From Escherichia coli (GTDB lineage: Bacteria > Pseudomonadota > Gammaproteobacteria > Enterobacterales > Enterobacteriaceae), in the NCBI RefSeq assembly GCF_003334785.1, contig NZ_QOWV01000062.1: a stretch of DNA of 1,333 bases; one strand, given 5' to 3'. Below are positions 1-1,333 of this stretch, in pieces; position 1 is the first letter of the stretch; each line of letters begins with the position of its first letter. Both the position numbers and the translations under genes were made by a program. Below the pieces are notes generated by a model. It saw only the letters and a program-made list of their open reading frames with translations, ran no database searches and was not told where the DNA came from.

Positions 1-138
1 AGGTGTTTGCTGTTGTTCAATGTATTGGCGGATGACGGATATTGGCGCACCTCCGCAGCTACTGGCAAAATAGCCAGGACTCCACAAAACGCCTTTGTAG
101 TAATACCTGACTGCAATATCTGGTCGATCTCGTCGCAG
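1..138 (-). pseudogene. tnpA: C-terminal remainder of tnpA, in the same frame directly downstream of the TGA at 139-141; open to the window edge
   Basis: Minus-strand codons immediately after the TGA, in the same frame, read LRRDRPDIAVRYYYKGVLWSPGYFASSCGGAPISVIRQYIEQQQTP. This resembles the conserved TnpA C-terminus (LWS.SYF...GG...RQYIEQQ), including the helix carrying the catalytic tyrosine (Tyr codon at 22-24, minus strand). There is no stop before position 1. Confidence 0.75.
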
Positions 139-426
139 TCACCTACCCGATACGCCTTTGAGGCTGTTTACCAGACTGGATATCGCCAGTTTGGGAGGAT
201 AGTTAATTAACAAATGGACGTGATCTGGTTCGCCATCCATTTCAACCAGTTCAGCTTCAAAATAAGCACATACATTTGAAAAGTAAGTGCGTAGTTTTTC
301 TGTCGCGTCATGGTCAAAAATCTGACGTCGGTATCTGGTGACAAAGACCAGGTGAACATGCATCAGGAAAACACAATGCCTTCCACGCCGGATATCGGTT
401 TCTTTTTTCACAGACCAAAGTATCAT
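139..426 (-). CDS. tnpA: IS200/IS605-family Y1 (HuH) transposase TnpA, 95-aa N-terminal segment ending at a premature in-frame TGA (139-141)
   Basis: ATG is the reverse complement of 424-426. The translation MILWSVKKETDIRRGRHCVFLMHVHLVFVTRYRRQIFDHD...PDHVHLLINYPPKLAISSLVNSLKGVSGR contains the His-hydrophobic-His motif (H-V-H, minus-strand codons at 214-222) and an upstream HVHLVFVTRYRR strand, both typical of IS200-type TnpA. At 95 aa the ORF is too short for an intact TnpA (about 130-155 aa). Confidence 0.85.
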   Translation of the reverse strand: MILWSVKKETDIRRGRHCVFLMHVHLVFVTRYRRQIFDHDATEKLRTYFSNVCAYFEAELVEMDGEPDHVHLLINYPPKLAISSLVNSLKGVSGR

Positions 427-433
427 TTGGCCT

Positions 434-1189
434 GTGAAACGACTACAAGCATTTAAATTCCAGTTAAGACCCGGTGGTCAACAGGAGCGTGAAATGAGGC
501 GCTTCGCAGGCGCATGTCGTTTCGTTTTCAATCGTGCTCTGGCACGTCAGAATGAGAATCATGAGGTCGGTAATAAATACATCCCTTACGGGAAAATGGC
601 TTCCTGGCTGGTTGAGTGGAAAAATGCCACTGAAACGCAATGGCTTAAAGATGCCCCGTCACAGCCATTGCAACAGTCACTGAAAGACCTTGAGCGGGCT
701 TACAAAAACTTCTTCCGGAAGCGGGCTGCTTTTCCCCGATTCAAAAAGCGGGGACAGAATGATGTATTCCGCTACCCGCAGGGCGTTAAGCTCGATCAGG
801 AAAACAGCCGTATTTTTCTGCCGAAACTGGGCTGGATGCGCTACCGGAACAGCCCTCAGGTCACGGGTGTTGTGAAAAATGTCACTGTCAGCCAGTCCTG
901 CGGTAAGTGGTACATCAGTATTCAGACAGAAAGTGAAGTATCAACTCCGGTTCACCCTTCAGCATCAATGGTCGGGCTGGATGCTGGCGTGGCTAAACTC
1001 GCCACGCTGTCAGATGGCACAGTCTTTGAGCCTGTAAACAGTTTTCAGAAAAACCAGAAGAAGCTGGCGAGACTTCAGCGACAGTTAAGCCGCAAGGTCA
1101 AATTCAGCGACTGCATTCCTGTATCGCAAATATCCGCAGGGACTACCTTCACAAAGTCACAACGACCGTCAGCAAAAACCACGCAATGA
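434..1189 (+). CDS. tnpB: TnpB (IS605 OrfB-type RNA-guided RuvC-like nuclease), N-terminal 251-aa segment in frame 2; the last ~25 residues are out-of-frame read-through ending at TGA 1187-1189
   Basis: GTG start at 434-436 with no ATG or other start upstream in frame. The N-terminus MKRLQAFKFQLRPGGQQEREMRRFAGACRFVFNRALA matches the conserved TnpB N-terminal pattern. Further conserved blocks follow: WLKDAPSQPLQQSLKDLERAYKNFF, FPRFKKRG, FRYPQG, VTVSQSCGKWYISI, the RuvC-I block VGLDAGVAKLATLSDG (Asp codon 980-982) and KLARLQRQLSRKVK. After about codon 1106-1108 the frame-2 translation (DCIPVSQISAGTTFTKSQRPSAKTTQ) loses all resemblance to TnpB. Confidence 0.88.
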   Translation: MKRLQAFKFQLRPGGQQEREMRRFAGACRFVFNRALARQNENHEVGNKYIPYGKMASWLVEWKNATETQWLKDAPSQPLQQSLKDLERAYKNFFRKRAAFPRFKKRGQNDVFRYPQGVKLDQENSRIFLPKLGWMRYRNSPQVTGVVKNVTVSQSCGKWYISIQTESEVSTPVHPSASMVGLDAGVAKLATLSDGTVFEPVNSFQKNQKKLARLQRQLSRKVKFSDCIPVSQISAGTTFTKSQRPSAKTTQ

Positions 1190-1333
1190 TAGTCATTGAG
1201 GATTTGAAGGTCAGCAACATGTCAAAGTCAGCAGCGGGTACGGTCAGCCAGCCGGGGCGCAATGTCCGGGCAAAATCAGGTTTAAACCGTTCGATACTGG
1301 ATCAGGGCTGGTATGAAATGCGCCGCCAGCTTG
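1102..1333 (+). pseudogene. tnpB: TnpB C-terminal continuation in frame 1, carrying the RuvC-II motif; runs off the window end
   Basis: Frame 1 is open from 1030 to the window end. From about 1102 it reads IQRLHSCIANIRRDYLHKVTTTVSKNHAMIVIEDLKVSNMSKSAAGTVSQPGRNVRAKSGLNRSILDQGWYEMRRQL. This matches the conserved TnpB segment (ARLH..IAN.R.DFLHK......N..IVIEDLNV.GM...........GW.EF.RQL as I recall it from ISDra2-type TnpB), with the RuvC-II Glu codon at 1198-1200. The start coordinate is approximate because the frame junction cannot be placed to the base. Confidence 0.78.

Follow-up and report, generated by a model that had tools for sequence, protein, structure and literature searches.

How are two genes expressed when their annotated start codons stand back to back, only 7 bp apart, and neither has a usable Shine-Dalgarno sequence? 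A 1,333-base stretch of Escherichia coli DNA (NCBI RefSeq assembly GCF_003334785.1, contig NZ_QOWV01000062.1), which we call the window, raises this question. It is a decayed copy of the E. coli insertion sequence IS609, of the IS200/IS605 family, with the transposase gene tnpA on the minus strand and tnpB (insQ), the gene of an RNA-guided nuclease, on the plus strand. The original prediction, made from the letters of the window, took the missing Shine-Dalgarno sequences as consistent with the weak translation of transposase genes and placed a weak candidate promoter for tnpA inside tnpB. We find instead that the tnpB mRNA is leaderless in E. coli K-12, starting on the first base of its GTG codon. 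We also consider it probable that IS609 has a compact two-way sigma-70 promoter with its core at positions 409-436, and that both genes were ancestrally transcribed from it without a leader.

The tnpB mRNA begins on its start codon

The start pair lies where it was originally read: the minus-strand ATG appears as CAT at 424-426, TTGGCCT fills the 7 bp of 427-433, and GTG follows at 434-436. The same pair, 7 bp apart, stands in the RefSeq annotation of UMNK88, CFSAN061772, K-12, and EDL933 by the NCBI Prokaryotic Genome Annotation Pipeline (PGAP). The absence of a Shine-Dalgarno sequence holds in full for tnpB, where nothing of the kind precedes GTG434. It holds less strictly for tnpA, where the ATG has just an AGG (complement of 431-433), 4 nt away.

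Start-site data exist for K-12. Kim et al. 2012 (PLoS Genet, PMC3415461) mapped 5′-triphosphate ends in exponentially growing K-12 after terminator-exonuclease treatment of the RNA. Their Table S4, "Leaderless mRNAs", holds 18 genes, among them ydcM (b1432), with start 1501681 (+), 14 reads, gene start 1501681, and a 5′-untranslated region (5′-UTR) of 0; the upstream sequence printed for this start ends ...AAAGTATCATTTGACCTG. The K-12 ydcM start maps to G434 of the window, with 7 bases between the hexamer TATCAT (421-426) and the start. The measurement belongs to K-12, which differs from the window copy by one base, at 430, within 421-434. Thus, tnpB lacks a Shine-Dalgarno sequence because its mRNA has no leader, and generic weak translation is not needed to explain it.

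The sequence around G434 fits such a start. In a weight-matrix scan, TATCAT lies within the top 0.08% of the hexamers of the window by −10 score. The first 40 nt of both predicted mRNAs, that of tnpB and that of tnpA (see below), are essentially unstructured, with minimum free energies of 0 to −3.3 kcal/mol; an unstructured 5′ end is a requirement for leaderless initiation (PMC9031893). According to the same review, a leaderless mRNA in E. coli is translated far less efficiently from GUG than from a 5′-terminal AUG, which is strongly preferred. The tnpB start is GTG in the window and in every Escherichia IS609 copy examined. Output of TnpB from the mapped transcript should therefore be low in the Escherichia form.

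Poor use of leaderless GUG in E. coli (PMC9031893) also speaks for another start, in which GTG434 is not the working codon and E. coli TnpB is mainly translated from the in-frame ATG494. Near the 5′ end of tnpB there is no good ribosome-binding site other than the AGGAG ahead of ATG494, and this AGGAG is kept in 13/20 of the relatives aligned below, as ATG494 is in 19/20. However, Gln-Glu codons explain the conservation of AGGAG, and the relatives carry ATG at 434. Moreover, residues 1-20 are conserved as protein: they match the N-terminus in solved TnpB structures as well as NCBIfam profiles, and truncation would lose the first strand. For the InsQ/TnpB protein read from 434, the alignment with the solved structures of ISDra2 TnpB begins at residue 3 (1e-54). 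We therefore regard ATG494 as an unlikely main start, although AGGAG-ATG494 could possibly start a truncated TnpB on leadered transcripts.

The ancestral gap is 22 bp and holds a TATAAT hexamer

Following a plasmid search, a scan of one genome per species gave 51 loci. Twenty sequences with tnpA divergent from tnpB were aligned, 4 from Escherichia and 16 from outside it. They come from Escherichia, Serratia, Erwinia, Xenorhabdus, Morganella, Klebsiella indica, Pantoea, Providencia, insect symbionts, and one Methylococcaceae genome. The consensus of the region is ...TTTCTTTTGT-CAT-AGACCAAAG-TATAAT-NNNNNNN-ATG-AAACGA.... The full canonical layout is seen in 16/20: a tnpA ATG at 409-411 on the minus strand, the conserved AGACCAAAG, TATAAT at 421-426, seven unconstrained bases, and a tnpB ATG at 434.

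The window departs from this layout at both start codons and in the hexamer. CAT at 409-411, which is the tnpA ATG, is present in 17 of the 20 sequences, and the window has CAC, that is, GTG on the minus strand. Position 424 is A in 17/20, which leaves no ATG at 424-426. The tnpB start codon is ATG in 16/16 sequences from outside Escherichia and GTG in 4/4 from within it. PGAP itself starts the Providencia tnpA at the place of 409-411, giving a protein that begins MKNETNIRRGRHC versus MILWS-VKKETDIRRGRHC in the window. As read from the alignment, the intergenic gap of the family is ancestrally 22 bp and the 7-bp gap of E. coli is a derived state of the Escherichia lineage. The E. coli ATG at 424-426 arose because A424 changed to C, turning TATAAT into TATCAT.

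Intermediate Escherichia alleles (L038, L008, and L063) suggest an order of change in which tnpB would have gone from ATG to GTG first, tnpA from ATG to GTG next, and TATAAT to TATCAT last. The 70-mer of the window rewritten to carry TATAAT gave zero exact matches in 5,426 complete E. coli genomes, and TATAAT stands on a different background in one E. coli copy (L063).

Column entropies over the 20 sequences follow the layout. The mean is 0.24 bit at 421-426 and 0.25 bit at 412-420. First and second codon positions give 0.19-0.25 bit and third positions 0.70-0.77 bit; both stretches are thus as constrained as the former and well under the latter in entropy. At 427-433 the mean rises to 1.62 bit, higher than at synonymous sites, so these seven bases are unconstrained. 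A pyrimidine occupies 433 in 18/20, followed by the purine of the tnpB start codon.

Overlapping −10 hexamers would serve both genes

The conserved gap has a second face on the minus strand. TATACT or TATATT lies there 7-8 nt before the ancestral tnpA ATG in 15/20 aligned sequences. In most relatives TATAAT (421-426, +) thus overlaps TATACT (424-419, −), and in the window both hexamers are degraded. The consensus scan calls TTGAAG-18-TATACT at the place of the tnpA promoter in Serratia (L010) and Pantoea (L022), at an overall rate of 1-2 calls per kilobase. The ancestral tnpA was probably leaderless too, with transcription predicted to start at 411. This position is 23 bp from the mapped plus-strand start at 434.

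We propose the following mechanism. The ancestral 22-bp gap would carry two −10 hexamers on opposite strands, TATAAT and TATACT, which share the palindromic TATA. A distance of 7 nt would separate each hexamer from the ATG of its own gene. Transcription would then start on the start codon, and both TnpB and TnpA would be made from leaderless mRNAs. Leaderless transcription on both sides, if correct, is why neither gene has a Shine-Dalgarno sequence. RNA polymerase could not occupy both orientations at once; tnpA and tnpB would therefore compete for initiation, and their mRNAs would not overlap. In E. coli IS609 this module would have drifted to TATCAT (+) and GATACT (−), with GTG at both ancestral start codons. 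The new in-frame ATG at 424-426 would then be picked by annotation pipelines, giving the apparent 7-bp gap. Because leaderless GUG is inefficient, the Escherichia form should make little TnpA from the ancestral start.

Two further points of the original prediction change under this model. Promoters were thought to lie inside the partner gene; the −35 halves must indeed lie there, but the −10 elements sit in the ancestral 22-bp gap. Transcriptional interference or antisense coupling of the two genes was also expected. Back-to-back starts give zero overlap, and the expected interplay is competition of polymerases for overlapping −10 boxes.

Several observations weigh against the two-way promoter. 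On the tnpB side, the weight-matrix scan showed neither a TG extension nor a hexamer that resembles a −35 (TTTCTT or GTTTCT stands in its place). The start at 434 has 14 reads, from one growth condition in one study. The leaderless tnpB mRNA may also not be the main one, as a plus-strand start with 28 reads at window 78 feeds tnpB. On the tnpA side, the K-12 table (PMC3415461) lists no minus-strand start at or near window 411, so this half is carried by sequence symmetry; in K-12, tnpA (yncK) is credited with a single start, which has 2 reads and lies at window 908. The K-12 negative is uninformative on the canonical form, because the minus-strand hexamer in the window is GATACT and the codon GTG. 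Geometry is a further point: the −10 elements overlap by 4 bp and the starts fall at the eighth base, unlike the commonest (18-bp) class of bidirectional promoters. Lastly, an intact IS609 in EDL933 (L059 1145-3294) with the derived TATCAT, CAC, and GTG splits a gene of the TetR/AcrR family, which means that the derived form has transposed in the history of E. coli. The derived ATG at 424-426 may for that reason be a working start, served by another promoter on a leadered tnpA mRNA.

A −35 for tnpB was also sought in the relatives. TTGTCA at 405-410 lies just 10 nt from the −10 and was rejected; no convincing hexamer stands at 16-18 nt. Within tnpB, a promoter-like TTGATA-16-AATACT occupies 908-944 (−), and the two-read K-12 start lies at window 908.

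The −10 geometry recurs in unrelated upstream contexts of tnpB

The plasmid search returned many tnpB-only elements whose homology to the window begins at about 435, beside the tnpB start codon. They are widespread on plasmids and P1-like phage-plasmids (L006, L007, L009, L064, L066, and L069-L086). These elements keep the 57-nt left end of IS609 (compared with K-12 L003 3162-3225), and about 23 nt replace the whole of tnpA. The junction reads TAAAAT, 6 nt, and then the tnpB ATG. In Serratia marcescens (L020), TGGTATAAT stands 8 nt before the tnpB ATG, and in Polynucleobacter (L024) TATAAT stands 6 nt before it. The recurrence of this geometry in unrelated upstream contexts supports the reading of the TATAAT hexamer as a promoter element. 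Where tnpB lies directly behind an icd-like gene (L065 and L087-L093), there is no −10 hexamer, and a Shine-Dalgarno-like TAAGGGA or TAGGTAGGA is found 5-8 nt before the ATG. To judge by these motifs, the icd-like context is a second mode of tnpB expression.

The same comparison bears on a different function of the conserved block. TATAAT with AGACCAAAG could act within leadered transcripts, either as a site bound by a protein or as an A/U-rich enhancer of translation that needs no Shine-Dalgarno sequence, the end at 434 being minor or processed. Leadered transcripts do exist. In the K-12 data a start at 1501325 (+), which is window 78, has 28 reads and a 356-nt 5′-UTR (PMC3415461). With twice the reads of the leaderless start, its transcript runs antisense across the full length of tnpA and on into tnpB. 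The missing −35 of the tnpB promoter and the conservation of 412-420, which has no obvious promoter role, also favour such an element. On the other side, the end at 434 comes from exonuclease-treated, 5′-triphosphate-enriched RNA, and its distance from a −10 hexamer is that expected of a start. A −10-like hexamer also reappears 6-8 nt ahead of the ATG where the upstream sequence is unrelated. In the promoter that feeds the leadered transcript, the −10 at 66-71 coincides with the Tyr-Phe codons of the catalytic-tyrosine motif, and relatives show synonymous variation there; these codons explain why it is conserved, and no selection on the 42-71 promoter beyond coding was seen in the relatives compared. 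We judge the enhancer or binding-site explanation quite improbable and keep TATAAT as a promoter element.

A terminator-like hairpin, GCCGGATATCGGT followed by a T-run, occupies 387-409 (+). With just 3 G-C pairs, and with its palindrome lost in relatives, it was rejected as a conserved terminator.

The proposed promoter for tnpA inside tnpB is poorly conserved

The tnpA promoter of the original prediction was TTGACC (complement of 476-481, GGTCAA on the plus strand), an 18-nt spacer, and TTTAAA (452-457), spanning 452-481 on the minus strand and leaving a leader of about 20 nt before the ATG at 426. With it went antisense-coupled genes and weak translation from a weak Shine-Dalgarno sequence. 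The hexamers and their spacing are located as described, and TTGACC is a good −35 (7.1 bits). The AGG upstream of ATG 424-426 would suit a leadered mRNA. TTGACC and this ATG are both novelties of the Escherichia lineage, and they could possibly mark a shift to a leadered tnpA in E. coli. In an alternative register, TTGACC-19-TTAAAT, the site ranks 8th in the window.

The −10 is the weak part. In TTTAAA the second base is T and the sixth is A, where a sigma-70 −10 needs A and T; these are the two −10 positions that matter most, and the hexamer scores −3.3 bits. A consensus scan of 360-500 reported zero sigma-70-like sites, and the simple weight-matrix scan ranks TTGACC-18-TTTAAA 63rd in the window. 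Conservation is likewise lacking: the −35 differs from TTGACC in 15/20 relatives, and the −10 is TTTGAA in 7/20. The K-12 table lists no minus-strand start near window 445, nor near 426, and the tnpB start at 434 leaves a tnpB mRNA that does not overlap tnpA. The alternative register is equally unsupported by conservation and by the K-12 start table. We rejected this promoter on the scans, the non-conservation, and the start table, and we think it very unlikely that tnpA was expressed from it.

Both genes of the window copy are broken

Many E. coli strains carry the sequence of the window in their chromosome with 100% identity, and ybcM and yedK flank the element there. The window is 99% identical to the IS609 of K-12 MG1655 (yncK/insQ) over positions 64-1430 of the latter. 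PGAP annotates the matching segment as an IS200/IS605 tnpA pseudogene with an internal stop plus a frameshifted InsQ/TnpB gene. The tnpA stop is an in-frame TGA at 139-141 (−); otherwise the sequence is the same as that of the intact orthologue. In tnpB, 34 bp adjoining a repeat at 1100-1108 (+) were lost between two copies of the 9-nt AAAT(T/A)CAGC, and this looks like a slippage deletion from the placement of the repeats. Since both tnpA and tnpB are broken, whatever the promoter does in the window copy has no protein output.

The intact orthologues identify the two proteins. The tnpA of EDL933 matches NCBIfam NF033573 (transpos_IS200, 7.9e-43), which makes it a Y1 (HuH) transposase, and the intact tnpB matches NCBIfam NF040570 (guided_TnpB, 1.1e-115), as a TnpB nuclease does. 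The coordinates of all features are collected in Table 1.

Table 1. Genes, promoter elements, and start codons in the 1,333-base window (positions counted from its first base)
Feature	Position	Strand	Basis or remark
tnpA (Y1/HuH transposase), pseudogene	1-426	−	Open reading frame list, translation, PGAP note "internal stop"; C-terminus runs off the window
Promoter TTGGCG (42-47), 18-nt spacer, CAAAAT (66-71), with mapped start at 78	42-78	+	K-12 start; weight-matrix scan; window identical to K-12
Ancestral tnpA start codon	409-411	−	ATG in 17/20 relatives, GTG in the window; PGAP start of Providencia tnpA
Conserved 7-nt spacer TTGGTCT	412-418	−	Separates the ancestral tnpA ATG from the minus-strand −10; entropy over 412-420
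Inferred −10 of the tnpA promoter	419-424	−	TATACT or TATATT in 15/20; GATACT in the window
−10 of the tnpB promoter	421-426	+	TATCAT in the window, TATAAT in 15/20; shares TATA (421-424) with the minus-strand −10
Annotated tnpA ATG	424-426	−	Escherichia-specific; A to C at 424 within TATAAT; adds 5 residues (MILWS)
Unconstrained 7-nt spacer	427-433	+	Separates the −10 from the tnpB start; entropy
tnpB start codon and transcription start	434-436	+	GTG in the window, ATG in 16 non-Escherichia sequences; Kim et al. 2012 Table S4
tnpB/insQ (RNA-guided nuclease)	434-1333	+	Frameshifted by the 34-bp deletion; open reading frame stops at 1189
Candidate −35 of the tnpA promoter	443-448	−	18-nt spacer; TTGTAG in the window, TTGAAG in several relatives; tnpB codons 4-5
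Putative in-frame internal start: AGGAG (483-487), 6-nt spacer, ATG494 (tnpB codon 21)	483-496	+	Sequence

Some observations stand apart from the promoter. The rare codons TTA AGA (Leu-Arg) at 464-469 (+) are nearly invariant at the nucleotide level in 19/20 relatives, beyond the need of coding. K-12 annotation places IS609 at 1503161-1504908, and both element ends fall outside the window. A hairpin-like sequence was seen at the left end, outside the window. An Rfam search of the window gave zero matches at E<=1. An RNA-seq compendium holds a short assembled transcript at K-12 NC_000913.3 1504845-1504904, outside the window, where it overlaps the final 20 nt of insQ as well as the right end of the element. 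It may relate to a guide (omega) RNA or to the 3′ end of ydcO.

Discussion

The 3′ end of the tnpB transcript gives the guide omega-RNA, which serves retention of the element. We can imagine, tentatively and with less than even confidence, that the symmetric 22-bp promoter of the IS609 type is an orientation switch. Each binding of polymerase would yield either a leaderless tnpA mRNA, for transposition, or a leaderless tnpB mRNA, for element retention. If this were true, the ratio of TnpA to TnpB would be set by the symmetry of the promoter and by conditions that favour leaderless translation, and the Escherichia lineage would have silenced both arms through its AUG to GUG changes. The two-way arrangement, if it holds, would be a simple mechanism for balancing a transposase against an RNA-guided nuclease.

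For annotation, the 7-bp gap and the 143-residue IS609 TnpA, extended by MILWS, both trace to a lineage-specific mutation within a −10 box; neither represents the gene structure of the family. Anyone expressing an enterobacterial TnpB/InsQ in its native context should take into account that the mRNA is leaderless, that the start is GUG in E. coli, and that the same base pairs probably also drive tnpA.

The leaderless ydcM was already in a published supplementary table, and bidirectional promoters and leaderless mRNAs are both established. In the literature we searched, no study of IS609 expression and no paper linking a leaderless mRNA with a bidirectional promoter for IS609 was found. Two points appear to be unreported there: that the 22-bp gap of the family probably works as a two-way core promoter of symmetric build, both start codons coinciding with predicted transcription starts, and that the 7-bp gap and MILWS extension of E. 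coli come from a mutation within a −10 box.

The nearest known system is the IS609 of K-12 itself, an IS605-type arrangement with divergent tnpA and tnpB, annotated yncK and insQ. It has the gene order, the annotated starts 7 bp apart, and the internal tnpA stop in common with the window copy. The location between ybcM and yedK and the frameshifting 34-bp tnpB deletion belong to the window copy.

Salmonella IS200 has a transposase of the same family. Its tnpA is controlled by the antisense RNA art200 and by a 5′-UTR hairpin that hides the Shine-Dalgarno sequence of a leadered mRNA, and expression is very low. K-12 IS609 also has a transcript antisense to tnpA, from window 78. However, IS200 tnpA is leadered with a Shine-Dalgarno sequence, whereas the ancestral tnpA of IS609 appears leaderless, and its antisense promoter shows no constraint beyond coding.

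The classic leaderless cases of E. coli are lambda cI and Tn1721 tetR. The tnpB of IS609 has in common with leaderless mRNAs of E. coli a start on the first base of the start codon, no Shine-Dalgarno sequence, and an unstructured 5′ end. It differs from the efficient ones in its codon, GUG in E. coli IS609 and AUG in the relatives.

Warman, Forrest, Wade, and Grainger (bioRxiv 10.1101/2020.01.31.928960) described divergent E. coli starts, 7-25 bp apart, around overlapping −10 elements, with a separation of 23 bp among the enriched classes. IS609 resembles these promoters in its opposite-strand overlapping −10 hexamers; divergent initiation is predicted for it, from starts at 411 and 434, which are 23 bp apart. 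It differs in that one of its two starts is mapped, that the overlap is a 4-bp TATA, and that both starts would fall on start codons, so that both products would be leaderless.

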